Source of the DNA: a virus
Lineage: Duplodnaviria; Caudoviricetes
DNA: 64,000 nucleotides
Strand: one strand, 5' to 3'
Virus record (IMG/VR): IMGVR_UViG_3300040811_000504
Location: 2,732 to 66,731 of that record
Of this stretch, positions 44,953 through 62,358 are shown piece by piece. A program made the position numbers and the translations under genes. How positions within the stretch are numbered: the stretch's first letter is position 1; each line of letters opens with the position of its first letter. Under the pieces are notes generated by a model that was given only the letters and a program-made list of their open reading frames with translations, searched no databases and had not been told where the DNA came from.

Positions 44953-44954
44953 AA

Positions 44955-45089: not shown

Positions 45090-45123
45090 AATACTATAAA
45101 TATACTATCTCTTAATTACCCTA

Positions 45124-45179
45124 CTAAGATAATAAAAAAAGGGGAGTTTTCCAACTCCCCTATGTTAAGTTTATGTTAA
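45124..45179 (-). promoter_or_regulatory. Bacteroidota-type promoter with tandem TTAACA box
   Basis: GTTG-N20-TATCTTAG; TTAACA at 45163-68 and 45174-79. Confidence 0.6.
45134..45160 (-). terminator. Intrinsic terminator overlapping the promoter
   Basis: GGGGAGTT-GGAA-AACTCCCC-TTTTTTT. Confidence 0.85.
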
Positions 45180-45364
45180 GTTTCTTCTATTGGTTCAACA
45201 TCTACAATTTCCTCACAAAAATAATAGAATGGTTCTTTCTTCAAAACGATATCGGCTCTGAGGTGTTCACGCCAAGTCTGAACAATTGGATTATGTGTAA
45301 CCCGAATCTTCCTTAGAACTATGTAGAGTTTCCCCCCTTTTTCTATAACTTCTTTACAAAACAC
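45176..45364 (-). CDS. Hypothetical protein
   Basis: In-strand ORF. Confidence 0.55.
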   Translation of the reverse strand: MFCKEVIEKGGKLYIVLRKIRVTHNPIVQTWREHLRADIVLKKEPFYYFCEEIVDVEPIEET

Positions 45365-45727
45365 TTACTTAACTTTTACCTCAATCACTTTAGCTTTCTT
45401 TTCTTCCAACTTAGGAATACTGATTGTTAATACACCATCCTTAGTTTCGGCGGTAGTTTTAGAAACATCCCAATCTTCAGAAATCTTATAACTCTTATTG
45501 AATGTTCTACTATCATTTTCACCTGTGATTGATAGAATATTATCCTCTACCTTAACTGAGATATCTTTTTTAGATAACCCTGGTACATCAAACTCCATTG
45601 ATAATACATCATCTTCAATTTTCATATTGCGATTAAAGTAATCTGATGGATGCGGTCTGTTCCACATATGTAAATTACCATCCCTAAGTAGGTCATTTAC
45701 TAATTGCTCTGTTGTTTTAAAAATCAT
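45365..45727 (-). CDS. Small heat-shock protein (Hsp20)
   Basis: DVPGL.K.DI.V...NILSITGE...FNKSY...A...DGVL.I.IPK...IEV. Confidence 0.88.
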   Translation of the reverse strand: MIFKTTEQLVNDLLRDGNLHMWNRPHPSDYFNRNMKIEDDVLSMEFDVPGLSKKDISVKVEDNILSITGENDSRTFNKSYKISEDWDVSKTTAETKDGVLTISIPKLEEKKAKVIEVKVK

Positions 45728-45825
45728 ATTCTCCTTTTTTAATGTTTAAACTTACACATAGTATATTTCAACTTGTGTACCATTTTAATAAATTGGAAAT
45801 TATGTCATAATGAACTGACAGATTG

Positions 45826-46221
45826 TCAGTTAAGTGAGATTGGTGAACCTTCACCAATTAAATCAAAAGTTAAAATTACATCCCAAGGTTCGTATTTTGT
45901 AAATTCAACATTTTGATTTGATAGTATAAGACCATTTAACATCATATCGTTAGCAACCTTCATCAATACGGCTAACTCAGAACCTGTAAACATTATTTTA
46001 CCGTCTGATGTAAATTGTAAGGTTACATCTTGCCTTATCTCATCCATAGGTTCTTCTTCGAACTCTATTTCAAAAATATTATCAATATGCTCACCATTAT
46101 ATTCGTGCACAAACTCACCGACCATTAAATCGTAAACATATAATAGCTTATCAACATCTTCTAATGTATTGAAGAAATTGAACTCACCCTCATCCCAATA
46201 TTCATTATCGTGCATAATCAC
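45826..46221 (-). CDS. Acidic hypothetical protein
   Basis: In-strand ORF. Confidence 0.6.
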   Translation of the reverse strand: MIMHDNEYWDEGEFNFFNTLEDVDKLLYVYDLMVGEFVHEYNGEHIDNIFEIEFEEEPMDEIRQDVTLQFTSDGKIMFTGSELAVLMKVANDMMLNGLILSNQNVEFTKYEPWDVILTFDLIGEGSPISLN

Positions 46222-46408
46222 TACTCCTATATGTTCTGTTTATCTCATATGCTAACCAAGCGGCATCTACATTTAGAGATTTAAAATAATCTTCAGTTAA
46301 CATATATACTTTTAATTTACGGAGTCTAGCATCCGAATCAGATTCAGACTTTAGGATTTCTAATATCCTATTCTTAAATGGTTCTTTGACTGTGTCTATA
46401 CTCATCAT
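46205..46408 (-). CDS. Hypothetical protein
   Basis: In-strand ORF; late-type motif upstream. Confidence 0.55.
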   Translation of the reverse strand: MMSIDTVKEPFKNRILEILKSESDSDARLRKLKVYMLTEDYFKSLNVDAAWLAYEINRTYRSSDYAR

Positions 46409-46420
46409 ATATAAATATCA

Positions 46421-46846
46421 TTATTTTATCTTTCCTTTGTATAATTGGTTTAAATATCCTAAAACTTCTTTTGGAAATATCATTCGCTTTGTGTGGAGTT
46501 GTTCCACCAAAACATCTAAGAATTTATGTATGTGGTTATAAATATCATCAGATGATTGTAGCTTATCTTTTAAAACTTTAATCCTATAATCGAATTTCTC
46601 TATATAATCATCCGATGCTGATTCGTTTGATTGAAGATATCTACTTATCATATACCTTTCAGAAAACCATAGGTGTGGTTTTGCATCATCTGTAACTGTT
46701 TTCTTTAATACCGTATCTACGAATTCAGATAGGGTTAGTATATCAGGAACAGCTTCTTCAAACTTGGTGTAGGAAACCCATTCACGGGCTTTCTCCATAT
46801 CCGGGTCTCCTAAACCTAATTGTTTAAAGAATTCGTTTGTTTCCAT
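46421..46846 (-). CDS. Hypothetical protein
   Basis: In-strand ORF. Confidence 0.6.
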   Translation of the reverse strand: METNEFFKQLGLGDPDMEKAREWVSYTKFEEAVPDILTLSEFVDTVLKKTVTDDAKPHLWFSERYMISRYLQSNESASDDYIEKFDYRIKVLKDKLQSSDDIYNHIHKFLDVLVEQLHTKRMIFPKEVLGYLNQLYKGKIK

Positions 46847-46849
46847 TCA

Positions 46850-47140
46850 TTAGAATAATCCTAATCGGATTTTTTGTCGATGTGTTTGTTGAGCCGTTTC
46901 TAAGGTTTCCATAATCTTACTACATTCAGACCATGTTAAATCAATCGAAACGTTACCAACTTCCAAAGTACCAATTGGGATACTTCTATCAGAATAGTTA
47001 GATTCGTTCATTTTATCAGTCATAGCAAAATCAATTGAATTGTAATTTTTACCTAACTTTCTTAAACGCTCTCTATCTTTTTCAGTTGATGCCCCACCAT
47101 GATTAACGTAACCTCTTGGTTTTCCATTGTATCTTTTCAT
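46850..47140 (-). CDS. Hypothetical protein
   Basis: In-strand ORF; late-type motif upstream. Confidence 0.6.
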   Translation of the reverse strand: MKRYNGKPRGYVNHGGASTEKDRERLRKLGKNYNSIDFAMTDKMNESNYSDRSIPIGTLEVGNVSIDLTWSECSKIMETLETAQQTHRQKIRLGLF

Positions 47141-47202
47141 AACATTGTAATTAAGTGTTAAACTATTTACAATAAATATGAAAATATCTTTAATGAAATC
47201 AA

Positions 47203-47493
47203 CTATTTACGTTTATTTCTATTTGAAATTCTATTGAACTTTTTCTCAAAAGATGCGGAGTCCATTCGGTTAGGATTAGTTCTCTCTATATTCTGATGTA
47301 CTTTCATAGTTTCACTAACCACTAACCACGCATCAGAAACACTTTGTTGTGGTGGTATCATATACTCACTAACAACAGAATCTTCTGTTCCAGTTGATAC
47401 ATAATACAATCCATCTTTAGATATTCTTGTAGTTGCTTTAGGATACTTTTTTAGTACTCTCTTCTTTATACGATTAAACTTCTTCTTTTCCAC
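47203..47493 (-). CDS. Hypothetical protein
   Basis: In-strand ORF. Confidence 0.6.
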   Translation of the reverse strand: MEKKKFNRIKKRVLKKYPKATTRISKDGLYYVSTGTEDSVVSEYMIPPQQSVSDAWLVVSETMKVHQNIERTNPNRMDSASFEKKFNRISNRNKRK

Positions 47494-47707
47494 TTTCTTT
47501 AGATTTAGTAAACGACTTTGTAAGACTACTATTTATAAATGATTCTGCGTTTTTATCATCAACGTAAACATTTTCATGCACCTTACCATCTTCTGATTTG
47601 ATTGTGTATTTATATCCTTTCTTAGTTGGTAGCTTTTCAACTACACTCCCAACCTTTAAAACTTTAAATACACTCACAATTACAGTTGAACCTGTTACAT
47701 AATTCAT
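47474..47707 (-). CDS. Hypothetical protein (SH3-like possible)
   Basis: In-strand ORF. Confidence 0.5.
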   Translation of the reverse strand: MNYVTGSTVIVSVFKVLKVGSVVEKLPTKKGYKYTIKSEDGKVHENVYVDDKNAESFINSSLTKSFTKSKESGKEEV

Positions 47708-47716
47708 TAATTACTC

Positions 47717-47917
47717 CTAGCTAATAACCTTTATGATTTTAGTTTCCAATACTGATGTAACTTCGAATTCCAAACCATCGTTCTTAAACTCTTCATGTAC
47801 TTTTGTTTCTGCATCGGTTACCGATACTGCGTGTACACAATATTGTTCCATCGTTTTCTTTTGACGACCCTTGTCATCAGTTGTAACTACTTTTACTTTT
47901 GCAATGTAATACTTCAT
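47717..47917 (-). CDS. DUF4494-like protein (Bacteroidota family)
   Basis: Y..KVK....D.G..KK..E.Y.V.A.S.T.AE... Confidence 0.7.
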   Translation of the reverse strand: MKYYIAKVKVVTTDDKGRQKKTMEQYCVHAVSVTDAETKVHEEFKNDGLEFEVTSVLETKIIKVIS

Positions 47918-47927
47918 AACTTTGTTT

Positions 47928-48335
47928 TTAATTATATTTAATGTTAAATTTTTCTTCTAATTCTTTTTCGGTAAGTAGTGCATATGAACCATTACACTCA
48001 CCCAATTCCATATCTTCGGTAAGTGTATGGTAATACGATACCACCTCTTCACCATTGTGTTGTCTACCTGCTGGAATAACCATCATTTGAATTGGTAGAA
48101 ACACATTTTGAAATTGTTTAAATAAACGAGGCCCAATCTCATCTGGTCCTTTTTTAAATCTATCTCTGAGATGGTCATAATATTGCTCATCCATTTCATT
48201 CCACTCATCCATAGGTTGAGATAAATACTCTTCCATCTCATTTGCCGCAGCCTGTAATGCTTCCATCTCTTCTTGAGAAACATCACCTGTATTCCAATAC
48301 TCTTCTGGTATAGGATTTTCGTTTTCTTTACTCAT
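47928..48335 (-). CDS. Acidic hypothetical protein
   Basis: In-strand ORF. Confidence 0.6.
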   Translation of the reverse strand: MSKENENPIPEEYWNTGDVSQEEMEALQAAANEMEEYLSQPMDEWNEMDEQYYDHLRDRFKKGPDEIGPRLFKQFQNVFLPIQMMVIPAGRQHNGEEVVSYYHTLTEDMELGECNGSYALLTEKELEEKFNIKYN

Positions 48336-48645
48336 AACTTATATCTACATTTTCATTTAATACATAACCAATTTCACCATCTTCAGTTTCAACCTCATTG
48401 AGTATTCCTTTATCTTTTAATTCGGAAACTGTATTATCTACATTCTCTTTGATAATCTCTTTGGTGATTTCCAAAACCAAATCCATAATAGATTCAGCAT
48501 CTAAATTATTTTCAGTAACAACTGAGTTACTCATCGTTTTATAGAATCTAGCTTTAAACTTATGCCCATCTATAAACTCACTTTCAAAGAATCCATCTTC
48601 TAAAAGGGATTCGTAAATATCGTTTGTTAATCCTTTAATATCCAT
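48328..48645 (-). CDS. Hypothetical protein (start revised to MDIKG)
   Basis: A promoter at 48667-48698 lies inside the track's longer ORF, so the downstream ATG at 48645 is preferred. Confidence 0.55.
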   Translation of the reverse strand: MDIKGLTNDIYESLLEDGFFESEFIDGHKFKARFYKTMSNSVVTENNLDAESIMDLVLEITKEIIKENVDNTVSELKDKGILNEVETEDGEIGYVLNENVDISYE

Positions 48646-48666
48646 ATCATAGTAATAGTTGTTTGA

Positions 48667-48698
48667 TAAATATACAAAAAATAAAGTTATTATCCAAA
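48667..48698 (-). promoter_or_regulatory. Bacteroidota-type promoter
   Basis: TTTG-N20-TATATTTA. Confidence 0.55.
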
Positions 48699-48713
48699 TC
48701 TTTTTTAAAATAA

Positions 48714-48733
48714 ACCCCACATCAAAGTGGGGT
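48714..48733 (-). terminator. Intrinsic terminator after the MoxR gene
   Basis: ACCCCAC-TTTGAT-GTGGGGT followed by TTATTTT. Confidence 0.7.
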
Positions 48734-48759
48734 CTACTTTAAGAGAGTTAAACAATATC

Positions 48760-50028
48760 TTAGAATGGGTTACTCAAATCTTCAGTTTCAGTATTGAACA
48801 AGTTCTCTTCTTCAGAAGAACCAACAAACTTTTGAACGAACTGTCGAATGTAAGTACGTTCTGATTGAGCACCACCTGCATCATCGAATAGTGGGTAGAT
48901 TGTAATCTCAGCAGCCTCAGCCAGATTAAACCCATCATAGAGTAGAGAACCAATCTCAACTGCTGTACGAGTCGATAATGAGTTAGTAAGTTGTGGAGTT
49001 TCTTTCTTAACCTCAGAACGGGTCATTGAAGTAATCTCAGCAACTGAGTTGATTAAGTTCACATCAACTGAAGGATACATCATTTGAAGTAGTGATTTTT
49101 CTTCATCAGATGTTAAAGTATCCATCTCAATAATTGTGAATCGGTCAACAATCGCACGGTCAAGTTGACGAGTGGCGGTGTATTCATTACCGATGTTAGC
49201 TGATGCAATGAAGGAAACACCCTCAGCAACTTTCACAACAGGCGAATCAGATGCCTCATCCAATCGTAAGTAACGTTGTCCGGCATCCAACACTGTCATT
49301 AGAATGTTGTGAGCCTCAGGGTGAGCCCGGCTAATCTCATCCAACACAATCACAGTGTTTGGAGTTTGAATTGCTTTAACGAATGGTGATGGTGAGAACA
49401 CAGTTCCTTTCTTAGTATCGAACTGAGTGTTACCAATCAGAGTAGCACGGGGGTCTTGTGTAGAACCTAAGTTGAAGATTTCCATATTGTAACCTTCGAT
49501 GGAATTAGCAGCTGCTTTAGCGGCCATAGTTTTACCACAACCAGCAGGCCCAGTCATCATAATATTCTTACCACGAAGAATGTTACGAATCAGATACTTC
49601 CATTTTAGTTCACTCATAAACAACATCTTTGGTTTCAAACCATTAGCCTCAGAGTGAATGAACTTTAGGAAATCTTCTTCCATTGGTTTCTCAACTGCTT
49701 CTGAAGGTGGTGGTGTACTAACCATTTTGAATGCTTCCAAACCACCATTGGGTTGATTAAAGTTCTCAACAGGCTCAGCCCCATTGAACTTCTCAGCAGG
49801 AACTCTACCGAACTCTACCGAACCTTCTGATAGGTTACCCTTTACACGTGCTTTGAAACAATACTTAGAAGGATTGTTAGCCGATGCAACGGCTCGTTTA
49901 TAAAGTGAAGTTCCCTTCTCATTGATTTCAGGAACCAAAAATTCAACACCATTCGTGTCTACTAAAACTAACTCTTTGTTCTCATTACGAACAACTTTAA
50001 GGAATACGGAACGCTGTGCTTTAGCCAT
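48760..50028 (-). CDS. MoxR/CbbQ-type AAA+ ATPase
   Basis: GPAGCGKT, IVLDEISRA, ASANIG, LDRAIVDRF, STR sensor. Confidence 0.9.
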   Translation of the reverse strand: MAKAQRSVFLKVVRNENKELVLVDTNGVEFLVPEINEKGTSLYKRAVASANNPSKYCFKARVKGNLSEGSVEFGRVPAEKFNGAEPVENFNQPNGGLEAFKMVSTPPPSEAVEKPMEEDFLKFIHSEANGLKPKMLFMSELKWKYLIRNILRGKNIMMTGPAGCGKTMAAKAAANSIEGYNMEIFNLGSTQDPRATLIGNTQFDTKKGTVFSPSPFVKAIQTPNTVIVLDEISRAHPEAHNILMTVLDAGQRYLRLDEASDSPVVKVAEGVSFIASANIGNEYTATRQLDRAIVDRFTIIEMDTLTSDEEKSLLQMMYPSVDVNLINSVAEITSMTRSEVKKETPQLTNSLSTRTAVEIGSLLYDGFNLAEAAEITIYPLFDDAGGAQSERTYIRQFVQKFVGSSEEENLFNTETEDLSNPF

Positions 50029-50079
50029 AATTTTATTTTTTAATTGTTTAACTTTTATTAATTATCTCTCTTTACTATG

Positions 50080-50135
50080 TAAAGATACTACTTTACTTTT
50101 ATATATCCAAACTTTCAATGTTAAGTTTATGTTAA
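50080..50135 (-). promoter_or_regulatory. Promoter with tandem TTAACA box (MoxR gene)
   Basis: TTTG-N20-TATCTTTA; boxes at 50119-24 and 50130-35. Confidence 0.7.
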
Positions 50136-50350
50136 CTTTTCATATGGTAGTGGCGAGAGTAATAACCCTCATCACCTACATTCGCATCATTCAATGGAGT
50201 ATAACCATTATACTGATTGGTATCATACAACATTCGTTCAATCATCGTACACATACCAGCTTTAAACTTATCATCACAATACTCATCAGTACGTTGGAGT
50301 TGGTTGTTAACGTAATCTAAAACTTTTTTTACTTCAATTGTTTTTCTCAT
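50132..50350 (-). CDS. Hypothetical protein (start revised to MRKTI)
   Basis: A promoter overlaps the longer track start. Confidence 0.55.
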   Translation of the reverse strand: MRKTIEVKKVLDYVNNQLQRTDEYCDDKFKAGMCTMIERMLYDTNQYNGYTPLNDANVGDEGYYSRHYHMKS

Positions 50351-50369
50351 ATCTCTCAATCTTACAGTA

Positions 50370-50425
50370 CTAAAGTACGACATATTATTGATATTTCCAA
50401 ATTTCTAATGTTAAGAAATCGTTAA
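50370..50425 (-). promoter_or_regulatory. Promoter with tandem TTAACA box
   Basis: TTTG-N20-TACTTTAG; boxes at 50409-14 and 50420-25 (TTAACG). Confidence 0.6.
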
Positions 50426-50611
50426 ATCTGTTAACAAAGTTTCATAAGCAGATGTGGCGTTTTCTACATAAAACACATCAGTTAACCCATCCAATTGATA
50501 TTTGTTTTGGAGAAACTGGCCGAATCTCAAGTCATCTGAGTTTCGACCATCCCCATTATCAACAGTCCACGATAGGTATTCCAAATTTAATCTCTCAATA
50601 TTCAGTACCAT
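50411..50611 (-). CDS. Hypothetical protein
   Basis: In-strand ORF; DLRFGQ motif. Confidence 0.55.
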   Translation of the reverse strand: MVLNIERLNLEYLSWTVDNGDGRNSDDLRFGQFLQNKYQLDGLTDVFYVENATSAYETLLTDLTIS

Positions 50612-52770
50612 TATTCAAACATTTTGTTTAGTGTTCGTGTCAAAGGAATCAGAGAAGTAACATCAATTGCTTCAGCAGATTTACCATACATTGCTTTAAA
50701 GTTATCAATAGCTCCACCGTATCTACCTTCTTCAATGAAGTAAGATAAAACGTTTACTCCAGCCATTCTCATTTTCTTAACCTGATTGGCAGTGTGGTTA
50801 ACCGCAGCCTCACCACCATATTCAATATCACTATTAGAAAAGCCTGGCCATCCATCGGAGAAGTTAATGAAGTAACTCTCAGCACCTTTGTTAGTTTTAG
50901 TGATATCATCTAAGATAGATTCGAAACACAATCCCTCAGGAGTAGTTCCACATGGATTAATGTATTGAAACAATTGTTGAATCTTAGAGAACTTATCAGT
51001 ACGAGAATCATATGCAATCAACATCAAAGGTTGAACCGATTGATGTGAACCACCACCTTGTTGAATTGAACGATAAGAAATCACAACATGAAGATTAGAG
51101 GTCATCGAAGCGGCCTTAGCGATTGCCACAGCAGCCGTTTGTGAATTAGTCCACTTCTTACCACCCATCGAAGAACTCGCATCAATGGAGATGTGAATCA
51201 ACGCAGGTTTGTGTTTGTTAACCACTGTCTGGTCAAAGATTTGAACATTACCCATACCCAACTCATGTAACAAACGACCTGAGATTTTACCATTCTTCAT
51301 ACGAGGTGTAACCAATGAACGTTCCTCAGAACGAACTTTCAAACGCTTACCAAGCATAGTACCAATCTGAACACCTTTAGTGATTGCAGGTTGGTTACGT
51401 TCACAATACCAACTGTATGTAGATAACATATCAATGGTATCAGAATCAATCAAACCTTTGGTAAAGTTACGAACCACAACAACAGATGTTGCTTTATCCT
51501 GTTTCCAATAACGACCTGATTGATAATCCTTACCAGCCAGCTTTTCATCGATACCAGCTTTAGAAAGTGTATCTAATTTTTGATTCTCACCTTTACCAAC
51601 TTTCTTCTTTTTGATATCACCATTTTGGAAATCTTTTTGTTTCTTAATAGCGTTATCCAATTGTTTTTTCTGGCGGTCTGAAAGTTCCCCCTCACCACTA
51701 CTAACTTTGTTATCAGCGATTTTATTGTTAGAACCATCACCACCCGCACCATTCGGATTGTAAGAAGAACGACCTGATTTTACATCATCACCTTCAGCAT
51801 CACCTTTGGTATCATCAATACCATTTGAATCTTGCTTTGATTGACCATCACTCTCAGGCCCTTCAGTATTATCAGTACCATTGGTTTCAGAGTTATCTCC
51901 ACCACCACCAGTACCTTCACCTGATTGTTGTTCGGTATCATCAGAGTTACCCTCACCATTACCATCACCATTCTCAGGTTGTTCAGATGGTGGAAGTGAA
52001 TCTTCTACTAATTTGAAAACCTCACAGGCCAATTCAAACGCCTGTTGAGTATTTTGTAATCGGTTGATGTTTTTCAAATCAATCAACTCCCAAACTTTTC
52101 GTAACATTGGAAGTGCATCCAAATCACGATTAGAGTTGGTGATGTTAATGATACGGAACATATAAGATTCCCAATCCTCAGTACGATACTCTGAAGATTG
52201 AAGTCCTTTATCGATAATCTTAGCGTTGAAGTACTTATCGTACATTGCGTGGTAGTAACCTTTGTAACCAGGAGAAGTAGAATAGATGTAGTAATCAATT
52301 CTACGGTCCTCAATCACATTCAACAAATCTTTAACAACACCTGAAACCCAATTACGAACACGCTCATAACTCATATAGTGTTTAGCTTCCAAATCCGATA
52401 GGTAACTATACCCAATCGGTTGGGGGAAATCGTAATTACGAAGTTTATTTAGTGATGAAAAATCGGTTAACTTAATGTGAGAACCTTCATGCAGTGCCAG
52501 CCCAACAGTAGGGTCAAACTCCTTATCATCCATCTTAGATGAAATGGTAACAGTCTTACCATCAGTATAGGAATTATCACCACGCTGGTCAAACATCACT
52601 TTGATGTTCTCATTGGTAACGATGTTAACAAAATTCGATACTGCTCTTTTGTATGATGCAAGTGCAAGAAGATTTGATTGTTTCTTCTCAACTACATCAA
52701 CAACATCAGAGTCATCATCAAATAAATCATCTCGCAACCAGTACGAACTATATTTTGTGTTATCTCTCAT
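50611..52770 (-). CDS. vWA (MIDAS) protein with N-terminal HExxH domain (CobT-like MoxR partner)
   Basis: ALHEGSH...IEDRRID; acidic Gly-rich linker; IDASSSM, GTTPE, FSDG. Confidence 0.85.
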   Translation of the reverse strand: MRDNTKYSSYWLRDDLFDDDSDVVDVVEKKQSNLLALASYKRAVSNFVNIVTNENIKVMFDQRGDNSYTDGKTVTISSKMDDKEFDPTVGLALHEGSHIKLTDFSSLNKLRNYDFPQPIGYSYLSDLEAKHYMSYERVRNWVSGVVKDLLNVIEDRRIDYYIYSTSPGYKGYYHAMYDKYFNAKIIDKGLQSSEYRTEDWESYMFRIINITNSNRDLDALPMLRKVWELIDLKNINRLQNTQQAFELACEVFKLVEDSLPPSEQPENGDGNGEGNSDDTEQQSGEGTGGGGDNSETNGTDNTEGPESDGQSKQDSNGIDDTKGDAEGDDVKSGRSSYNPNGAGGDGSNNKIADNKVSSGEGELSDRQKKQLDNAIKKQKDFQNGDIKKKKVGKGENQKLDTLSKAGIDEKLAGKDYQSGRYWKQDKATSVVVVRNFTKGLIDSDTIDMLSTYSWYCERNQPAITKGVQIGTMLGKRLKVRSEERSLVTPRMKNGKISGRLLHELGMGNVQIFDQTVVNKHKPALIHISIDASSSMGGKKWTNSQTAAVAIAKAASMTSNLHVVISYRSIQQGGGSHQSVQPLMLIAYDSRTDKFSKIQQLFQYINPCGTTPEGLCFESILDDITKTNKGAESYFINFSDGWPGFSNSDIEYGGEAAVNHTANQVKKMRMAGVNVLSYFIEEGRYGGAIDNFKAMYGKSAEAIDVTSLIPLTRTLNKMFE

Positions 52771-52816
52771 ATATCTATATTTTTAATTTGATTACTAATT
52801 ATCTCTCTTTACTATG

Positions 52817-52872
52817 TAAAGATAAGGTATTTTACTTGAATAAACAAGCTTTTAATGTTAAATAATTGTTAA
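52817..52872 (-). promoter_or_regulatory. Promoter with tandem TTAACA box (vWA gene)
   Basis: CTTG-N20-TATCTTTA; boxes at 52856-61 and 52867-72. Confidence 0.7.
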
Positions 52873-52896
52873 AGTTATTAACAAGTTATCAACACT

Positions 52897-53094
52897 TTAA
52901 ATCAATGCTTTGTAAATTTTATTGTAGTTAATCGAACATAATCCGATTATACCTATCATAAATGACATAAATGCGAATCCCATCTCATTGAGAACACCCG
53001 CAAAATGTATTAGGGATTGAACTTTACCCAACATAGTTCCGATAGATAATCCGAACCCACCTAACACTAACAAAATCGCTTGATAATTTTTCAT
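52897..53094 (-). CDS. Small two-TM membrane protein
   Basis: Two hydrophobic segments. Confidence 0.55.
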   Translation of the reverse strand: MKNYQAILLVLGGFGLSIGTMLGKVQSLIHFAGVLNEMGFAFMSFMIGIIGLCSINYNKIYKALI

Positions 53095-53123
53095 ACTATA
53101 TAATCTTTATCTCTTTTACTATG

Positions 53124-53179
53124 TAAAGATAATAAAAAAAGGGGACTTTACCAAGCCCCCAATGTTAAGAAATTGTTAA
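53124..53179 (-). promoter_or_regulatory. Promoter with tandem TTAACA box
   Basis: CTTG-N20-TATCTTTA; boxes at 53163-68 and 53174-79. Confidence 0.65.
53134..53160 (-). terminator. Intrinsic terminator overlapping the promoter
   Basis: GGGGGCTT-GGTA-AAGTCCCC-TTTTTTT. Confidence 0.8.
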
Positions 53180-53188
53180 ATCTTTATC

Positions 53189-55253: not shown

Positions 55254-55408
55254 TTTACCCATTCGTTAAATGCAATCTCATACGCCTCAACCTTAGAGAG
55301 TTTTGGATTCTCTTCCATCTCTTTCCTAGCCCAATCCATCACTTCAGTACGAAGTCCATATGCGGATGCCTCATATAGAATCTCTTCAATTTGTTCTTCG
55401 TTAGTCAT
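55250..55408 (-). CDS. Small hypothetical protein (52 aa)
   Basis: Manual ORF MTNEEQIEEILYEA...; ATGA overlap with mgsA. Confidence 0.6.
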   Translation of the reverse strand: MTNEEQIEEILYEASAYGLRTEVMDWARKEMEENPKLSKVEAYEIAFNEWVK

Positions 55409-55742
55409 ATTTAAGAATTTGTGATTTAACCTTATCCATAAGAGTTAGAACATCTGGTGTCAATGGAGATGTATTCATAACATCCATTATTTCGGATAGA
55501 AGTTCCTTCATATCTCTTTTAGATTTATCCTTAGAAAATTTAACGTTGGTACGTTCTACTTCATACAAATGATACGCAATCTCATCTATCTCTTTCAACT
55601 TATTCTCATACTTTGATATACGAGAATCTACATATCGATTATTAGATGAATTACTATTAGGAACATATCCTTTGTACAACTCATCCAACCTACCTTTAAG
55701 GTACTGAATTTCCATCAGTTTATGTATTGACTTGTAATCCAT
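55401..55742 (-). CDS. Hypothetical protein
   Basis: In-strand ORF. Confidence 0.6.
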   Translation of the reverse strand: MDYKSIHKLMEIQYLKGRLDELYKGYVPNSNSSNNRYVDSRISKYENKLKEIDEIAYHLYEVERTNVKFSKDKSKRDMKELLSEIMDVMNTSPLTPDVLTLMDKVKSQILKYD

Positions 55743-55757
55743 TACTTTTTAATTTAG

Positions 55758-55829
55758 AGCGGGAAGGTGGAACTGCCCCACCATCTCCGTACTGGAAGTA
55801 CGGCGAGTTTCTCTTAACTCTTTTCCCGC
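55758..55829 (-). tRNA. tRNA-Gly(UCC)-like, non-canonical core, copy 1
   Basis: GCGGGAA/TTCCCGC acceptor with U73; D stem GAGT/ACTC; anticodon CCGTA-CTTCCAG-TACGG; T arm GGTGG-GGCAGTT-CCACC; no CCA. Confidence 0.8.
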
Positions 55830-55834
55830 ATTAG

Positions 55835-55906
55835 AGCGGAAGGTTGGAACTGCCCCAACTTCTTCTGACTGGATGTCAGACGGGTTTCTCTTAACCCCTC
55901 TCCCGC
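55835..55906 (-). tRNA. tRNA-Gly(UCC)-like, non-canonical core with A33, copy 2
   Basis: GCGGGAG/CTTCCGC with U73; GGGT/ACCC; TCTGA-CATCCAG-TCAGA; GTTGG-GGCAGTT-CCAAC. Confidence 0.75.
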
Positions 55907-56157
55907 ATTTCTTTTTGTATGGTAGTTACTATTGAATCATCTATTTGATTTTCAATAGCAGTGTTCCATAACTTTCTCATAAACTCAATGTGATGGGGTT
56001 GAATTTCAAATCCCATCTCACCACTAAATGTGTTTTGAGAACCTGTAATCAATGCACGAACAATGTAGATATCACCTACATCAACACCTTCAGTATTCTC
56101 CATTAACTTCTTTAAGTAAAGAATCTTATCGGTTATATTTACACTATCCCATTTCAT
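55891..56157 (-). CDS. Hypothetical protein (start revised to MKWDS); last codons overlap tRNA-Gly copy 2
   Basis: Promoter at 56165-56196 precedes ATG 56157. Confidence 0.55.
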   Translation of the reverse strand: MKWDSVNITDKILYLKKLMENTEGVDVGDIYIVRALITGSQNTFSGEMGFEIQPHHIEFMRKLWNTAIENQIDDSIVTTIQKEMRERG

Positions 56158-56164
56158 TTGAATA

Positions 56165-56196
56165 CAAATATACAACTTATTTTTTAATTATACAAG
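56165..56196 (-). promoter_or_regulatory. Bacteroidota consensus promoter
   Basis: CTTG-N20-TATATTTG. Confidence 0.75.
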
Positions 56197-56216
56197 TCTT
56201 TTTTAAAATATTTTTG

Positions 56217-56301
56217 CGGAAGATGTAGGATTCGAACCTACGATACCTTTCGGTATGCTGGTTTTCAAGACCAGTGCAATCGACCACTCTGCCAATCTTC
56301 C
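56217..56301 (-). tRNA. tRNA-Ser(UGA)
   Basis: GGAAGAT/ATCTTCC, CTGGT-CTTGAAA-ACCAG, long variable arm, GGTTCGAATCC, G73. Confidence 0.95.
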
Positions 56302-56306
56302 AAAGT

Positions 56307-56417
56307 GAGAGAGGCTTCGGGTCTTTCGGGGTTTCTGGTTTGGTCTATTTACGCCTACTATAAACCCTTTTTCAGCGGAATTCTTAATTATACCCTAACA
56401 GCTTCACTTCCTCTCTC
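56307..56417 (-). ncRNA. Candidate structured RNA A (unknown family)
   Basis: 8-bp terminal stem GAGAGAGG/CCTCTCTC and internal GGTTTAT/ATAGACC hairpin; GC-rich; lies in the tRNA cluster. Confidence 0.4.
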
Positions 56418-56418
56418 T

Positions 56419-56456
56419 AAAAAAATGAGAGTAGATATTTGCAACTACCTACCCTC
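56419..56456 (-). terminator. Terminator-like hairpin inside the tRNA cluster
   Basis: GAGGGTAGGTA-GTTGCAAA-TATCTACTCTC then ATTTTTTT. Confidence 0.6.
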
Positions 56457-56522
56457 GCAAAAGACTTACCCTGGTACGCTCGACCGGGGACACCCCAATC
56501 CGTTAAAGCGTGATAAGTACTT

Positions 56523-56599
56523 TGGTACACCCGATAGGATTCGAACCTATGACCTACGCATTAGAAGTGCGTTGCTCTATCCAGCTGAGCTACGGGTGC
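56523..56599 (-). tRNA. tRNA-Arg(UCU), CCA encoded
   Basis: GCACCCG TAGCTCAG CTGG ATAGAGC; ACGCA-CTTCTAA-TGCGT; GGTTCGAATCC; ACCA. Confidence 0.96.
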
Positions 56600-56603
56600 A
56601 TAA

Positions 56604-56695
56604 TAGAGGGCTACCCTTATGATGAACACCCGTCAGTGCCATTTAACCAGTTGCGGCCATACCTACGTCTAGGATTTTACTTTTTACTCCCTCTA
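56604..56695 (-). ncRNA. Candidate structured RNA B (unknown family)
   Basis: 7-bp terminal stem TAGAGGG/CCCTCTA and CCTA-GACG-TAGG hairpin; fills the gap between tRNA-Leu and tRNA-Arg. Confidence 0.4.
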
Positions 56696-56784
56696 TGGTA
56701 CTCGGAGCGGGAATCGAACCCGCACGGCCATTACTGGCCATTGGATTTTAAGTCCAACGTGTCTACCTATTCCACCACCCGAGC
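56696..56784 (-). tRNA. tRNA-Leu(UAA), CCA encoded
   Basis: GCTCGGG TGGTGGAA TAGG TAGACAC; TTGGA-CTTAAAA-TCCAA; long variable arm; GGTTCGATTCC; ACCA. Confidence 0.96.
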
Positions 56785-56808
56785 TTCTTAAATATCAAAG
56801 AACTTTTA

Positions 56809-56840
56809 CAAATATACAAAATTAATTTCATATATCCAAA
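56809..56840 (-). promoter_or_regulatory. Bacteroidota consensus promoter of the tRNA operon
   Basis: TTTG-N20-TATATTTG, 25 nt upstream of tRNA-Leu. Confidence 0.8.
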
Positions 56841-56841
56841 T

Positions 56842-57324
56842 TTAATCCCACCATCCTCTGATGTTATGTGAGATGAATTCCCAAACTAATTTCTCAGCTC
56901 TCTTTTGTTTTTCCTGTGATTCCTTAAACAACTTATCGAATACCTTCTCTACATCAGATGAATCAGCTCTAAATTCCCACGCCTGTCTTAGATATGATGA
57001 ACCATCACCCTTACCAGTATCCTCAAACCAAAAATCTAAAATAGTAGAACCATACAGTTCTTTCATCTTAGTTTGATACTCACATCCATAGTCCTCATCA
57101 TAAACTTTTTGTAGAAGTTCAATAGCAGTTCGGATACGTTTAGCACGAATATCAGCATCAACAGTCATCACTTTATCAGATTCCATAAAATCAGCAGTAC
57201 GTTCTAATTGGTACTTAAACAAATTAATAGCATGAGAATAATCAAAATCATACCCCTTCCAAATGATAGGTAGGAAATCCCATACTCGTTTTAATCTACG
57301 AAAGAACCATTTTACATTTCTCAT
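56842..57324 (-). CDS. Conserved phage hypothetical protein
   Basis: In-strand ORF; W...D.DY N-terminus and WWD end. Confidence 0.65.
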   Translation of the reverse strand: MRNVKWFFRRLKRVWDFLPIIWKGYDFDYSHAINLFKYQLERTADFMESDKVMTVDADIRAKRIRTAIELLQKVYDEDYGCEYQTKMKELYGSTILDFWFEDTGKGDGSSYLRQAWEFRADSSDVEKVFDKLFKESQEKQKRAEKLVWEFISHNIRGWWD

Positions 57325-57551
57325 AAATCTAAGTTTATGTTATGTTCACTTATAATCTCACGAAGATGTTCTCTACACTTTTCGTAGGTTTCATATTTGT
57401 CCTCACTATATTCCTCATCGGGCATATATTTGTATTGTGCTCTCAACCATTGGTCCATATCCCACAATACGGAATGCATTTTAGAACCATTAACCGCTAA
57501 TTCAAATTCAGCGTTCTCTTCTGGTAAATTAAACTTTAAGGTAGCTTCCAT
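57321..57551 (-). CDS. Conserved phage hypothetical protein
   Basis: MEATLKFNLPEE...LWDMDQWLR. Confidence 0.65.
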   Translation of the reverse strand: MEATLKFNLPEENAEFELAVNGSKMHSVLWDMDQWLRAQYKYMPDEEYSEDKYETYEKCREHLREIISEHNINLDL

Positions 57552-57982
57552 AATTCGTAATTACTATTTTCTGTTTTAAACTTAACATAACCATCTCTCT
57601 CTTCTACAATCTCAGTAATGGTAGTTGTTTGCCAGGTGAAGTATTGACTGAATGGGGACATGATAAGTGAACGACCTACTGCAGGTGTATCATACTTATC
57701 CTTAAACCTACCCACTTCATCAAACTCAAGCCACATTACTTTATTTGATTCTTTAGTTAGTCCATCTCGTTCTCTAACTAACTTCCAATTGAATTCGTTT
57801 TCAATTACACCTTGTTCAACCGCAACCTTTAAGACACCATCTTCAGTTAATGTCATCGGTATTTTTGTTTGTTTTATCTTGCTCATATATTTAATATTTT
57901 GCTGTTCTTGTCGAATCTGATACTGGTCCTCTCCCTCTTGCGTTATGTTCATAACGTTTTTTCTTTTTATGTTCTTTAACAA
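57536..57982 (-). CDS. Hypothetical protein (true start probably downstream)
   Basis: In-strand ORF; FTWQTT.ITEI...F.T.NS.Y motif. Confidence 0.55.
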   Translation of the reverse strand: MLKNIKRKNVMNITQEGEDQYQIRQEQQNIKYMSKIKQTKIPMTLTEDGVLKVAVEQGVIENEFNWKLVRERDGLTKESNKVMWLEFDEVGRFKDKYDTPAVGRSLIMSPFSQYFTWQTTTITEIVEERDGYVKFKTENSNYELWKLP

Positions 57983-58063
57983 TACTATGTGTTGATAGTG
58001 ATACTATCGCAATTAAAGTTCCCCAAAATATACAAAAGAAACATTTACCATCCCAATAATAAT

Positions 58064-58228
58064 TCATAGTTCATTTTGGGAATCCTCTTTTCCAGACCGT
58101 CTGGCCAATTTTAATGAATACCCAACCAAACACCCACCAAAAAAAATTGATAGTAATGATGTTGTTGATGTAAACAATAACCCAATACACATTAGTATTA
58201 TTGCGTGTCCATATGTTGTTATTTTCAT
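58064..58228 (-). CDS. Small membrane protein (54 aa)
   Basis: Manual ORF MKITTYGHAIILMCIGLL... Confidence 0.45.
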   Translation of the reverse strand: MKITTYGHAIILMCIGLLFTSTTSLLSIFFGGCLVGYSLKLARRSGKEDSQNEL

Positions 58229-58232
58229 ATCT

Positions 58233-58439
58233 TTATAGTTCTCCTGCTTTAAGTTTATCTGATTCTATATCAGTAATCAACCATTTGATTCTTTCAGTTG
58301 CCATAGATGGACAATCATCCTCTAATAGATTTAGGATTTGGTTGAGGTTCTTTAGAACCAATCTCTTTGATACTAATGGGTTGGTTGCAGGTGTATATCC
58401 ACTTTCTACCCATTCTCTTACTTTATCTCTTAAACTCAT
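58233..58439 (-). CDS. Hypothetical protein
   Basis: In-strand ORF. Confidence 0.55.
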   Translation of the reverse strand: MSLRDKVREWVESGYTPATNPLVSKRLVLKNLNQILNLLEDDCPSMATERIKWLITDIESDKLKAGEL

Positions 58440-58443
58440 AACT

Positions 58444-58749
58444 TTATGCTGTTATCCAATCAATATCTTCTTCAAATCGGAAAGATTCAGCACCATCGTA
58501 TTCTTCAATGATGAATCTCGTACCCTCTTCAATCCAAGCTACTCTCAAATCTTGAACACCACCTGAGTAACCATCGGTCCAAGTCTTTTCTACAAAATCA
58601 ATTGCTTCTTGAACTTTTTGTTGTTCAACCAACTCAATCAAAGTTGGATTGAAGATTGCTTCAGTTGGGTAACCCCAAGTGTAGAATCCTGCTCCGTAAC
58701 CAGGTGAAATCAATACACCCACTTTTCCATCTTTAATTACTTTTTCCAT
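58444..58749 (-). CDS. Conserved phage hypothetical protein (start revised to MEKVI)
   Basis: SPGYGAG...IEEYDGAES motif; promoter directly upstream. Confidence 0.65.
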   Translation of the reverse strand: MEKVIKDGKVGVLISPGYGAGFYTWGYPTEAIFNPTLIELVEQQKVQEAIDFVEKTWTDGYSGGVQDLRVAWIEEGTRFIIEEYDGAESFRFEEDIDWITA

Positions 58750-58753
58750 AATA

Positions 58754-58785
58754 CAAATATACAAAATTTATTTTACAATTCCAAA
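58754..58785 (-). promoter_or_regulatory. Bacteroidota consensus promoter
   Basis: TTTG-N20-TATATTTG. Confidence 0.8.
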
Positions 58786-58786
58786 T

Positions 58787-59131
58787 TTAATCAAACCATT
58801 GTGAACGATGTGTTTTGATATTCTTAACATGCTTATCAGGTTCTTTCATATCCTTTTCAACCATCTTATCAATGATACGTTGTTGGTTTATCATATCACC
58901 CTCTTTACCAATCTTTTTTGCTGATTGAAACTCTTTATCCGTTAGTTGTTTACCTTGATGTGCAGCAGTTACGGCAGCATACCGTTTGGTGTGATATTCA
59001 CCTAGTGGTTTAGTGAATTGTTTTAGATGTTCAGCTTTCTGGTCTAAGTAATCTAAAAACGCATCAAAATCATCTTCACCTAATTTATTTAGTTGTTCTT
59101 CAGTCAATTCGTTATTTGGGTCGTACTTCAT
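58787..59131 (-). CDS. Hypothetical protein
   Basis: In-strand ORF. Confidence 0.6.
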   Translation of the reverse strand: MKYDPNNELTEEQLNKLGEDDFDAFLDYLDQKAEHLKQFTKPLGEYHTKRYAAVTAAHQGKQLTDKEFQSAKKIGKEGDMINQQRIIDKMVEKDMKEPDKHVKNIKTHRSQWFD

Positions 59132-59132
59132 A

Positions 59133-59334
59133 TTACTTTAATCCTTTAATTAGGTTTAATAAAAATTATTCGCCTAAGTCTTTTAAAACCATCTTTAAGA
59201 TATGTTTCTTTCCTTCCCATATATCTACTCTTTCATTATTGGGTTCTCTTTCTATAGCTTCTTCAAACAGTCTAATCATTCTTTTATAACTTTCAATATT
59301 TTCTTTGGTAACCATAATTTACTTTAATCCTTTA
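59133..59334 (-). repeat. 16-bp direct repeat TAAAGGATTAAAGTAA flanking a 49-aa ORF
   Basis: Exact copies at 59319-59334 (3' end of the upstream gene) and 59133-59148. Confidence 0.8.
59166..59315 (-). CDS. Small hypothetical protein (49 aa)
   Basis: Manual ORF MVTKENIESYKRMIRLFEEAIE... Confidence 0.55.
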   Translation of the reverse strand: MVTKENIESYKRMIRLFEEAIEREPNNERVDIWEGKKHILKMVLKDLGE

Positions 59335-59804
59335 GTTGTTTTTCTACCTAATTTAATTGCAAGTTCTGATGGTGTTGTTCCCATCTTACATTGTTTCTTA
59401 TACCACCAATACATATCTTCAGTAGTACCCTTACCACGTTGGCGTTCCATACACTTATCCCAAAGACACTTACCAAACTCAGATTCCAATTCTTTCTTTA
59501 GTTGATTCAATCGTATCTGTTCTTCTTCCCATGCCTTCTCTTCCAACTTCATTGCTTTGATTCGTTTCATCTTAGCGTGTTGGTGAGCTTCATGCTTCTT
59601 ATCATTGATATTCTGAATTAGAGATGTACGCATATATTCATCATACATCTTATCGTACATCTTATGATTATCTGCAGCTTCTTTATAGAAAGGTGAGTAT
59701 TCAAAATCACCATTACGAATCTTTAACAACAATGGTGCAGATGAGTATAGAGGTTTCTTACGGTACTTACCTGAGGTATACCAACGGAACGGATTGTATC
59801 CCAT
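59319..59804 (-). CDS. Conserved phage hypothetical protein
   Basis: YNPFRW...LLLKIRNGDF. Confidence 0.6.
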   Translation of the reverse strand: MGYNPFRWYTSGKYRKKPLYSSAPLLLKIRNGDFEYSPFYKEAADNHKMYDKMYDEYMRTSLIQNINDKKHEAHQHAKMKRIKAMKLEEKAWEEEQIRLNQLKKELESEFGKCLWDKCMERQRGKGTTEDMYWWYKKQCKMGTTPSELAIKLGRKTTKGLK

Positions 59805-60295
59805 TATACTAATTCTTTAATTCTTATTTTAATTGCGTTATAGTAATCTAAATCCCTTTGTTGTTGTCCTGATAAAGCAACACCTAGTTTTAGGTGCTTA
59901 GGGTATTCCTTAACGCCTTTATGTTCCATTCTTCTTTGTTCACTATCAAGGAACTTTAACTCTTCAAATTCTTCTGGTGCCATACTAGCGTTCAACTTAG
60001 ATTCTAACTTATCAATGAATTCATATGCTGATGTTTTACCACCCACATTCCATTGGGTGTTCTCAGTAATGGTGTATTCAACATCATATGTTTTCCAATC
60101 ATAGATAGTGAATACATTATCACCATCTACAATCACCCATTCTTTTTGAACCTTCTCATCACCGCTAGGTTCTGGTAGTGTTGGTTCTCCCATAAGGTTT
60201 ACTAAATCAGAATACGTCCATCCGAACAATGAACCAACCTTATAAGTACCACCGATAAGGTCTAATGCTTTTTTCTTACTAACTACTTTTCTCAT
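59804..60295 (-). CDS. Hypothetical protein (start revised to MRKVV)
   Basis: EW.......FTIYDWK...WNVGG motif. Confidence 0.6.
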   Translation of the reverse strand: MRKVVSKKKALDLIGGTYKVGSLFGWTYSDLVNLMGEPTLPEPSGDEKVQKEWVIVDGDNVFTIYDWKTYDVEYTITENTQWNVGGKTSAYEFIDKLESKLNASMAPEEFEELKFLDSEQRRMEHKGVKEYPKHLKLGVALSGQQQRDLDYYNAIKIRIKELV

Positions 60296-60313
60296 ATCTT
60301 TTCTTTTACAATT

Positions 60314-60369
60314 CAAAGATACAAAAAAGGTTTGGAATAACCAAACCTTAAATGTTAAATAATTGTTAA
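60314..60369 (-). promoter_or_regulatory. Promoter with tandem TTAACA box
   Basis: TTTG-N20-TATCTTTG; boxes at 60353-58 and 60364-69. Confidence 0.75.
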
Positions 60370-62326: not shown

Positions 62327-62358
62327 CAAATATACAACTTATTTTTGATATATCCAAA
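62327..62358 (-). promoter_or_regulatory. Bacteroidota consensus promoter
   Basis: TTTG-N20-TATATTTG. Confidence 0.8.

Follow-up and report, generated by a model that had tools for sequence, protein, structure and literature searches.

A 64-kb stretch of the uncultured phage genome IMGVR_UViG_3300040811_000504 (Duplodnaviria, Caudoviricetes; positions 2,732 to 66,731 of the IMG/VR record, here called the window) carries six promoters in which two TTAACA/G hexamers, set one helical turn apart, stand at a fixed distance upstream of a -33/-7 promoter. The full composite of tandem box, -33 element and -7 element is a widespread phage-specific promoter class, and the bare box is a conserved, intergenic, promoter-positioned cis-element in the chromosomes of Flavobacteriaceae. 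We propose, with a probability of about 0.6, that the phage class recruits a PhoP-type response regulator of the host, binding at the phage sites being predicted. If a host regulator is indeed involved, the odds are roughly two in three that it is the phosphate-responsive Pho regulator. Part of the gene programme of this large marine Flavobacteriia phage is probably wired to a stress or nutrient sensor of its host.

A composite promoter in the window and in other phages

The exact pattern TTAACR-N5-TTAACR occurs six times in the window, always on the minus (coding) strand, against an expectation of 0.06, and none of 100 shuffled windows reached six boxes or held more than one. The layout is the same at 6/6 sites: the proximal hexamer is followed by a T, 7 nt, a TTG-containing -33 element, exactly 20 nt between the TTG and the TA of the -7 octamer, and GTAA exactly 4 nt past the octamer, while the hexamers themselves form a direct repeat with an 11-bp period (Table 1). 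The octamers are TATCTTAG at 45124, TATCTTTA at 50080, 52817 and 53124, TACTTTAG at 50370 and TATCTTTG at 60314; only the last matches TAnnTTTG exactly, and the other five depart from it by one substitution at position 7 or 8. An initial annotation of this DNA had described six promoters with tandem TTAACA/G hexamers at an 11-bp period, a constant distance to the -33 element, a 20-nt spacer and, in five cases, a degenerate -7 element. The same six sites were recovered with all of these features; the octamers given there are exact, and the coordinates are the low ends of the octamers. The assignment of moxR, vWA and the uvsE region to the class also holds, promoters 2, 4 and 1 preceding, respectively, a MoxR-like ATPase, a CobT/von Willebrand factor A (vWA)-like protein, and a 53-aa open reading frame (ORF) with UvdE. 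When up to two mismatches were allowed, the window held 42 boxes against 26.1 ± 6.2 expected, with no convincing copy beyond the six.

At three of the six sites (boxes starting at 45163, 53163 and 60353), a terminator-like hairpin with a T-run lies between the box and the -7 element and encloses the TTG, and an independent terminator scan called the same three hairpins (45161-45140, 53160-53141 and 60349-60327). The stop codon of the upstream ORF is the TAA within a box hexamer at three sites as well (45176-45178, 50132-50134 and 50411-50413), and such sites appear to be an extreme packing of gene end, predicted regulator site, terminator and promoter. The predicted leaders at promoters 3 and 6 are only about 10-15 nt long and end in a GAGAGATATG-like sequence.

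The window also has promoters that lack the box. Five of them read TTG-N20-TATATTTG (62327, 58754, 56809, 56165 and 42775), and two more candidates carry variant octamers, TATATTTA at 48667 and TATATTAG at 22147. The earlier statement that most box-less promoters have the consensus is borne out by five of these seven, the remaining two showing that a variant -7 element is not exclusive to box promoters. The 16S rRNA promoters of the host have the core ...GTTGTATATTTG, as do the five consensus phage promoters, and host rRNA promoters match TTG-N18-21-TAnnTTTG. This suggests that the box-less phage class copies the strongest constitutive promoters of the host, and the box class a regulated one. 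The mRNA from 58754-58784, where the start codon stands at the expected transcription start, may be leaderless. Promoters of the E. coli sigma-70 type were also considered for the window and rejected, a scan having found 79 against 87.5 expected and hence no enrichment.

Beyond the window, the class was followed through viral contigs; proportions are counts among the matches listed, and totals of loci are lower bounds. The box followed by T, N7 and TTG occurs at at least 148 viral loci, often in several copies per contig on one strand. Among the matches listed, TAYNTT lies 19-21 nt past this pattern in 145/171 viral instances against 2/118 cellular ones, and TAYNTT is accompanied by GTA in 111/171 against 0/118. 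A -7 element is recognisable in 130/159 unique viral instances among the matches listed; within these 130, the spacer is 20 nt in 125, GTAA lies 4 nt past the octamer in 94, and the octamer ends in the canonical TTTG in only ~17. The commonest octamers, again among the matches listed, are TATCTTTA (44), TACTTTAG (20), TATATTAG (16) and TATATTTA (11). Because so few octamers end in TTTG while fixed variants recur across viral instances, the off-consensus -7 element is a conserved property of the class and not a sign of decay. Since these patterns had required TTG, a rescan left the whole 31-nt interval free, and TTG was still in place in 147/164 unique viral instances among the matches listed (T.99, T.95, G.95, G.82), nine of the 17 exceptions reading TTAGG. 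A T precedes the distal hexamer in 76% of the viral instances among the matches listed. The 64-nt composite with its 26 specified bases was found at at least 155 viral loci, as opposed to three matches in 185,579 cellular genomes (one per species). All three lie on contigs of metagenome-assembled genomes, one of them being clearly phage DNA (a Schleiferiaceae bin, 18 matching segments) and one probably so.

Five relatives of ~175 kb, 90-97% complete, hold 9-11 copies each, with 50/50 on one strand, most of them within 35-45 kb; the reversed control gave 0. Many motif-bearing viral loci have the MoxR/vWA neighbourhood of the window, and others carry UvsX, a gp32-like single-stranded DNA-binding protein, a DnaB-type helicase, RNA ligase and polynucleotide kinase, which are other T4-like modules. 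The cassette occurs in at least two unrelated phage lineages. Viral locus L346 (15.9 kb) encodes a 405-aa terminase unrelated to that of the window, a 413-aa portal and an HNH nuclease, and has no protein in common with the T4-like group except one marginal 65-aa match. Just 3' of its terminase gene, on the minus strand at 5427-6313, three cassettes identical in every feature stand in a row, and in one of them TTAACA occurs three times with an 11-bp period.

The copies are near-identical even at spacer and leader positions, within as well as between genomes, and a terminator (a hairpin of -6 kcal/mol or better plus a T-run) is embedded in 26/171 copies among the matches listed. Together with the presence in unrelated phages and the small, variable ORFs in the flanks, this would suit a mobile promoter(-terminator) cassette spread by recombination within or between phages, comparable to the promoter-stem-loop repeats of T4-type phages, in which the box would be carried along or serve recombination as a handle, with no role in binding a regulator. 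Such an account leaves unexplained why conserved host promoters have this very hexamer repeat at set positions, and why the -33/-7 spacing is nucleotide-exact while the intervening bases vary. We consider it improbable as a replacement for a regulator site; as a mode of spread, it is compatible with recruitment of a host regulator and does not exclude it.

The box in host chromosomes and the regulator that may read it

In five Flavobacteriaceae chromosomes, the exact bare box is intergenic at 21/22 sites. It gave 289 matches against 147 for the reversed control and is present in 58/61 Flavobacteriaceae genomes, and unselected host sites in 10 genomes proved intergenic in 60/63 cases (two sites on very short contigs of an eleventh genome were dropped before this count). 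The sites form recurrent promoter groups common to several genera. A -7-like octamer lies downstream of the proximal hexamer at 18-21 nt (12 sites), 23-25 nt (7) or 31 nt (5), and the other side shows no such clustering. The idea that cellular matches to box plus TTG are pure chance is wrong for the bare box, given its intergenic placement, and right for the full composite.

The host moxR gene (AAA_3 type, Bat operon) has a tandem box with at most one mismatch upstream in 26/30 genomes against 1/60 controls; the box ends 20-21 nt before the octamer, and three of the four misses reflect a failed ORF call. Upstream of Porin_O_P genes, a tandem box with at most two mismatches was found in 16/30 genomes against 2/60 controls, the conserved promoter having three units at an 11-bp period that end 9 nt before the octamer. 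This phosphate-selective porin O/P stands behind the box in two genera, and the Porin_O_P gene is directly upstream of pstS-pstC-pstA in 4/7 genomes with a PstS match. Three to four repeats were found at host sites L586 and L587, and a box of this kind precedes a TonB-dependent receptor with the domain architecture of Fjoh_0545 of Flavobacterium johnsoniae. Other box-fronted genes encode DUF4442 proteins (8/46, plus 2/13), CoA_binding_2 proteins (3), ribosomal protein S6 (3), CAP-family secreted proteins (3), more TonB-dependent receptors, TonB_C, a Metallophos_2 protein (PlcP-type Pfam) and 20 proteins of no family. When host and phage are compared, the modal gap between proximal hexamer and octamer is 9 nt in the host porin promoters (9/13), 20-21 nt at host moxR (21/28) and 31 nt in the phage window (6/6). 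This 11-bp ladder would keep the regulator on one face of the helix.

Some host sites have features of their own. At the CoA_binding_2 gene (three loci and one more), the box ends 1-3 nt before the ATG. At that distance it must share bases with the core promoter or the start, and the arrangement points to repression or to a leaderless mRNA, not to activation. The gene for the DUF4442 protein, which has a thioesterase fold, carries the box ~50 nt upstream with a conserved CATAGTACTAwAA flank in many genera (eight loci and two more); in several genomes a MoxR paralog is 4-6 kb away, which places the site close to the far end of an operon of the Bat type. A Flavo-1 RNA (Rfam RF01705, 52 bits) was found at L586:4640-4716 on the minus strand, ~2 kb upstream of the Tenacibaculum TonB-dependent receptor with the 3-4-repeat box.

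In the initial annotation, 11-bp direct repeats next to a promoter had been taken as typical of the OmpR/PhoB family. This suits the six phage sites as well as the three repeats in L346, the 3-4 repeats at L586 and L587 and the three units of the porin promoters. Hexamer repeats of this kind are also the sites of Bacillus subtilis PhoP and E. coli ArcA. A regulator from the order of the predicted host provides a match: PhoP of Riemerella anatipestifer (Flavobacteriales, Weeksellaceae) is an OmpR-family response regulator for which DNA affinity purification sequencing of the phosphorylated protein gave a motif at 579/583 peaks, with TTTAACA as the most conserved nucleotides (PMC9603813). The phage hexamer is the core of this published motif, which the same paper states to be highly similar to that of ArcA. 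Electrophoretic mobility shift assays reported there were positive at the promoters of moxR, dnaG, a TonB-dependent receptor and an outer-membrane beta-barrel protein, among others; the moxR probe in its Table S2 has two TTAACA direct repeats 10 bp apart followed by a third, degenerate unit, and according to a supplementary figure legend PhoP binding upstream of moxR enhances transcription of the Bat operon (PMC9603813). This work aside, a search for the hexamer in the literature on phages, promoters and response regulators found nothing. In F. johnsoniae, the phoBR cluster includes OprP (pf07396) and the strongly phosphate-induced TonB-dependent transporter Fjoh_0545 (PMC8115612), with which the receptor behind the 3-4-repeat box shares the same three domains; the main text of that paper defines no Pho-box motif.

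A host regulator is favoured because the bare box is a conserved host element (at moxR and at porin-pstS), because PhoP binds the hexamer (PMC9603813), because five near-complete phage genomes lack Trans_reg_C and because an unrelated lineage has the cassette. The Trans_reg_C domain was found in 0/5 near-complete (90-97%) box-bearing phage genomes, whereas the same search was positive in 10/14 control genomes. The initial annotation had allowed for either a host regulator or a phage factor behind an activator-dependent class that possibly senses host state; the sequence evidence supports such a class of the OmpR/PhoB type and favours the host branch.

According to the other branch, a phage-encoded factor (a MotA-like activator or another early protein) reads the box at true middle promoters, for which no host regulator would be needed; the occurrences in hosts would be unrelated, or the factor would mimic the host specificity. 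In favour of this branch are the phage specificity of the composite, with its distinctive -7 element and GTAA, and the clustering of its sites in a ~35-45-kb region of early/middle type, interspersed with consensus promoters much as the early and middle promoters of T4 are. The absence of the box from two cultured relatives is also as expected for a lineage-specific factor. A small winged-helix-like family encoded 3' of MoxR in relatives (L314:5229-5576) gave an HTH_45 match (E = 3e-4) below the cut-off, and the window ORF 48328-48720 (minus strand), which has its own box-less promoter at 48667-48697, matches the profile of this family marginally (E = 8e-4). The family is a weak candidate for such a factor. 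A Pfam search of 93 recurrent flank families returned only one sub-threshold winged-helix hint, and no protein family is found in more than 10/76 locus groups (1.48 Mb of flanks; 80 loci with full flanks, a factor encoded elsewhere being possible). The MotA C-terminal and AsiA domains (PF09158 and PF09010) were each found in 0/5 near-complete genomes and in none of the control genomes either. A phage factor also has to contend with the conserved host element and the host regulator that binds the hexamer (PMC9603813), the lack of Trans_reg_C in five near-complete genomes and the identical cassette in L346 with its unrelated terminase. We regard it as unlikely; it ranks slightly ahead of the mobile-cassette account given above.

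The box might also be read by RNA polymerase itself, as an UP-element-like site for two alpha C-terminal domains that gives a constitutive boost and involves no sensing. The layout of UP elements is matched by the position of the box at ~-60 to -44, by its two subsites one turn apart and by the A-rich five positions directly upstream (A 0.56-0.87 in viral instances among the matches listed); the box also precedes the ribosomal protein S6 gene in three genomes. However, a tandem box with at most two mismatches in sense orientation is present in 0/6 host 16S upstream regions (four genomes), which have A-tracts instead. The C of the hexamer is invariant, and the host box lies mostly in the -33 place (18-21 nt from the octamer), which is typical of a transcription factor. 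Binding of the hexamer by a purified regulator (PMC9603813) points the same way, and a direct reading by the polymerase is the least probable of the explanations considered.

If a host regulator is recruited, the cassette of ~64-80 nt would serve host RNA polymerase with its Bacteroidota-type sigma-A, offering a -33 element (yTTGG), a 20-nt spacer and a -7 octamer one step off consensus (TAYnTTTA or TAYnTTAG in place of TAnnTTTG), with the conserved GTAA at the expected start. The two TTAACA direct repeats, one helical turn apart at ~-60 to -44, would bind a host OmpR-family regulator of the Riemerella PhoP type, possibly the Pho regulator, and two molecules lying head to tail on one face of the helix would help or gate the polymerase, these promoters being slightly weakened. 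The repeats of host promoters usually take the place of the -33 element (gap of 9 or 20 nt), as is common where a PhoB-type activator stands in for an upstream element that the promoter lacks. The phage site lies two turns further upstream (31 nt) with the -33 element kept, and a bound dimer could assist the polymerase without replacing that element. The output of a promoter with a sub-optimal -7 element would be raised, or at least modulated, by the phosphorylated host regulator, and the block of early/middle-region genes (MoxR-like ATPase, vWA-like protein, UvdE and small unknowns) would be transcribed following the activity of the host sensor. We infer binding at the phage sites, the start at GTAA, activation over repression, the signal (phosphate, redox or both) and the temporal role.

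Several points weigh against recruitment of a host regulator. The relaxed box pattern has 0 matches in vB_FspM_immuto and Mel-JY01, two cultured phages with terminases 56-58% identical to that of the window, one of which is on a Flavobacterium host, so that no cultured model for the class came to light. Variant octamers also occur in the two box-less phage promoters at 48667 and 22147. With a good -33 element and a near-consensus -7 element kept, the promoters may fire without any activator, and a regulator bound at -60 to -44 could repress or do nothing. Recombination that spreads a cassette, and not selection acting on its several parts, could account for the near-identity of non-functional positions. 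The regulator described in print belongs to Weeksellaceae, another family than the box-bearing Flavobacteriaceae studied here; the paper describes the system in its introduction as up-regulated on phosphate starvation and calls the activating signal unknown in its discussion (PMC9603813). On the host side, the box is found at some canonical Pho genes (porin-pstSCA, the Fjoh_0545-type receptor, Metallophos_2), but there is no box at 3/7 pstS loci, and enrichment upstream of PhoX is weak (4/16 against 1/32), two of these sites having clear multi-unit arrays with porin-like geometry. The host regulon as a whole is mixed and, as the genes listed above illustrate, includes many non-Pho genes, and the placement of the box directly at the start codon of some host genes points to repression in these cases. 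One regulator with a single signal may therefore not account for all of these sites.

A bolder version of the proposal, to which we would give somewhat less than even odds, is that a large group of marine Flavobacteriia phages from at least two unrelated lineages uses the host PhoP-type regulator (phosphate- and/or redox-responsive) as the master input for a whole block of genes. Through a portable, nucleotide-exact promoter(-terminator) cassette, what is a class-II-type site in the host would act as a class-I-type enhancer on a promoter that is otherwise autonomous. Infection in the sea would be tuned by the phosphorus or oxidative status of the host, and a replicating phage, with ~10 high-affinity sites in each genome, might draw the regulator off the host regulon by titration. 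Should the recruitment of a host regulator be true, this phage would be the first apart from the cyanophages to have many of its promoters tied to a two-component system of the host. The case would moreover be far cleaner than that of the cyanophages, with exact, position-fixed and readily recognised sites that make regulator dependence testable by simple box mutations. The sequence signature would make a large set of uncultured marine phages recognisable (at least 155 loci) and point to Flavobacteriales hosts. As a by-product, a conserved regulon of that regulator would be outlined in Flavobacteriaceae, comprising the moxR/Bat operon, porin-pstS, TonB-dependent receptors, DUF4442 and CoA-binding genes. 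An ecological question becomes testable as well, namely whether the phosphorus or redox status of heterotrophic marine bacteria gates phage expression.

Genomic setting of the promoters

The window is part of a large T4-like myovirus of Bacteroidota, as its terminase relatives indicate, and this assignment fits both the -33/-7 promoter type and the lack of E. coli-type promoter enrichment. By terminase (56-58% identity), the closest cultured relatives are Flavobacterium phage vB_FspM_immuto (160 kb) and a record named Microcystis phage Mel-JY01. A megablast search with 6 kb of the window against named phages gave no match, and the nearest viral record (41.8 kb, 23% complete) is without the box and probably covers another part of the genome. 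The minus strand carries 76/83 greedy ORF calls in the window. The window encodes a T4-type large terminase, gp25- and gp6-like baseplate proteins, a 2029-aa fibre and an SbcCD-like nuclease; other genes encode a primase, endonuclease I, a ClpP-like protease, GroES, thymidylate synthase, Hsp20, UvdE, the MoxR-like AAA_5/CbbQ_C ATPase and the 719-aa CobT/vWA-like protein. The positions of the promoters and of the genes that follow them are given in Table 1.

Table 1. Predicted promoters of the window, with their elements and the genes downstream (positions in the window, 1 being its first letter)
Feature	Position	Strand	Elements and remarks	Downstream gene
Composite promoter 1	45116..45179	minus	box 45163-45179; TTG 45152-45154; hairpin 45140-45161 + T-run; -7 TATCTTAG 45124-45131; GTAA 45116-45119	53-aa ORF 44924-45085; UvdE 44050-44952 (Pfam); minus
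Composite promoter 2	50072..50135	minus	box 50119-50135; TTG 50108-50110; -7 TATCTTTA 50080-50087; GTAA 50072-50075	MoxR-like AAA_5/CbbQ_C ATPase 48760-50028 (Pfam); minus
Composite promoter 3	50362..50425	minus	box 50409-50425 (distal hexamer TTAACG); TTG 50398-50400; -7 TACTTTAG 50370-50377; GTAA 50362-50365	small ORF ending 50132, likely ATG ~11 nt past GTAA; minus
Composite promoter 4	52809..52872	minus	box 52856-52872; TTG 52845-52847; -7 TATCTTTA 52817-52824; GTAA 52809-52812	719-aa CobT/vWA-like protein 50611-52770 (PHROGs); minus
Composite promoter 5	53116..53179	minus	box 53163-53179; TTG 53152-53154; hairpin 53141-53160; -7 TATCTTTA 53124-53131; GTAA 53116-53119	65-aa ORF 52897-53094; minus
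Composite promoter 6	60306..60369	minus	box 60353-60369; TTG 60342-60344; hairpin 60327-60349; -7 TATCTTTG 60314-60321; GTAA 60306-60309	ORF 59804-60316 (~165 aa), likely ATG ~10 nt past GTAA; minus
Box-less consensus promoter	62327..62357	minus	TTGG..N..GTTGTATATTTG; TTG-N20-TA geometry as in box class; resembles host rRNA promoter core	
Box-less consensus promoter	58754..58784	minus	ATG 4 nt past octamer	
Box-less consensus promoter	56809..56839	minus		three tRNA genes
Box-less consensus promoter	56165..56195	minus		ORF 55891-56175
Box-less consensus promoter	42775..42805	minus		ClpP-like protease, GroES and HD genes

In the phage, the MoxR-like ATPase belongs to the AAA_5/CbbQ_C type and has the CobT/vWA-like protein as its partner, while the host moxR behind the box is of the AAA_3, Bat-operon type. 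The same regulator motif stands in front of functionally analogous, non-orthologous MoxR-vWA pairs in phage and host.

Just 3' of the promoter at 56809-56839 lie three tRNA genes on the minus strand (56216-56301, 56523-56599 and 56696-56784; Ser-TGA, Arg-TCT and Leu-TAA). RNA-library depth is very high at these genes, with tRNA-like loose ends that probably stem from the tRNAs of other organisms. Between ORFs 55891-56175 and 55401-55742, at ~55745-55895 on the minus strand, two GC-rich elements of ~75 nt stand in tandem; the pair folds at -58.5 kcal/mol (z = -4.5 against shuffles), matches no Rfam family and may be a structured RNA pair.

Near-identical pieces of the box region are present in RNA contigs from four metatranscriptome runs (estuary and salt-marsh RNA libraries), which as assembled contigs cannot show starts, ends or strand. 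In two studies, the RNA contigs end at 45119 and 45121, and depth drops past the hairpin of site 1, no more than a hint that the embedded hairpin terminates transcription. RNA contigs of relatives run through promoter 4.

Comparison with known systems

The sites of phosphorylated ArcA in E. coli are direct repeats at 11-bp spacing (PMC3798270, PMC4173790), and ArcA is likewise an OmpR-family global regulator that binds two to several such repeats, 11 bp from centre to centre. ArcA differs in being mainly a repressor, in belonging to a proteobacterium and in sensing redox, and neither homology nor a shared signal is claimed here.

In T4 middle promoters, a phage protein recognises the MotA box, which takes the place of the -35 element at ~-30, and AsiA remodels sigma. 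The likeness to the class described here lies in a second promoter class interleaved with consensus early promoters and in the combination of a -10-type element for host sigma with an extra upstream box. The difference is that here the -33 element is retained (147/164 among the matches listed), the box ends 8 nt upstream of the TTG at ~-60 to -44, and the box is also a host element. The comparison with MotA drawn in the initial annotation stands as a loose analogy; the box is placed upstream of a retained -33 element and does not replace it.

The Riemerella PhoP regulon resembles the present one in the core TTTAACA, its use in direct repeats and its targets, which include moxR, TonB-dependent receptors and outer-membrane proteins (PMC9603813). 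It was defined on a Weeksellaceae chromosome, its moxR repeats are 10 bp apart and not 11, and that study did not deal with phage sites.

The closest parallel among phages is the T4-like cyanophage S-PM2d, several of whose promoters are bound by host PhoB (PMC10976474). Like the window, it represents a T4-like marine myovirus with sites for a host OmpR/PhoB-family regulator at its own genes and not only at phosphate genes, a set that includes Hsp20, UvsX, DNA polymerase and an ATPase, and its sites are tandem direct repeats with an 11-bp period (PMC10976474). Transcription of that phage therefore tracks a nutrient sensor of the host. The predicted boxes of S-PM2d are degenerate, variably placed and, according to the authors, poorly predictive of binding (PMC10976474). 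In the present case, the host phylum is Bacteroidota with its -33/-7 promoters, and the evidence is drawn from sequence. The box matches exactly and its distances to -33, -7 and the predicted start are nucleotide-exact; a genome has 9-11 such promoters, which form a recognisable class, and unrelated phages share it. Phage promoters read by a host two-component regulator are known from cyanophages, and what is new here is another phylum and promoter type, with sites that are exact, portable, ~10 per genome and found in unrelated phages.

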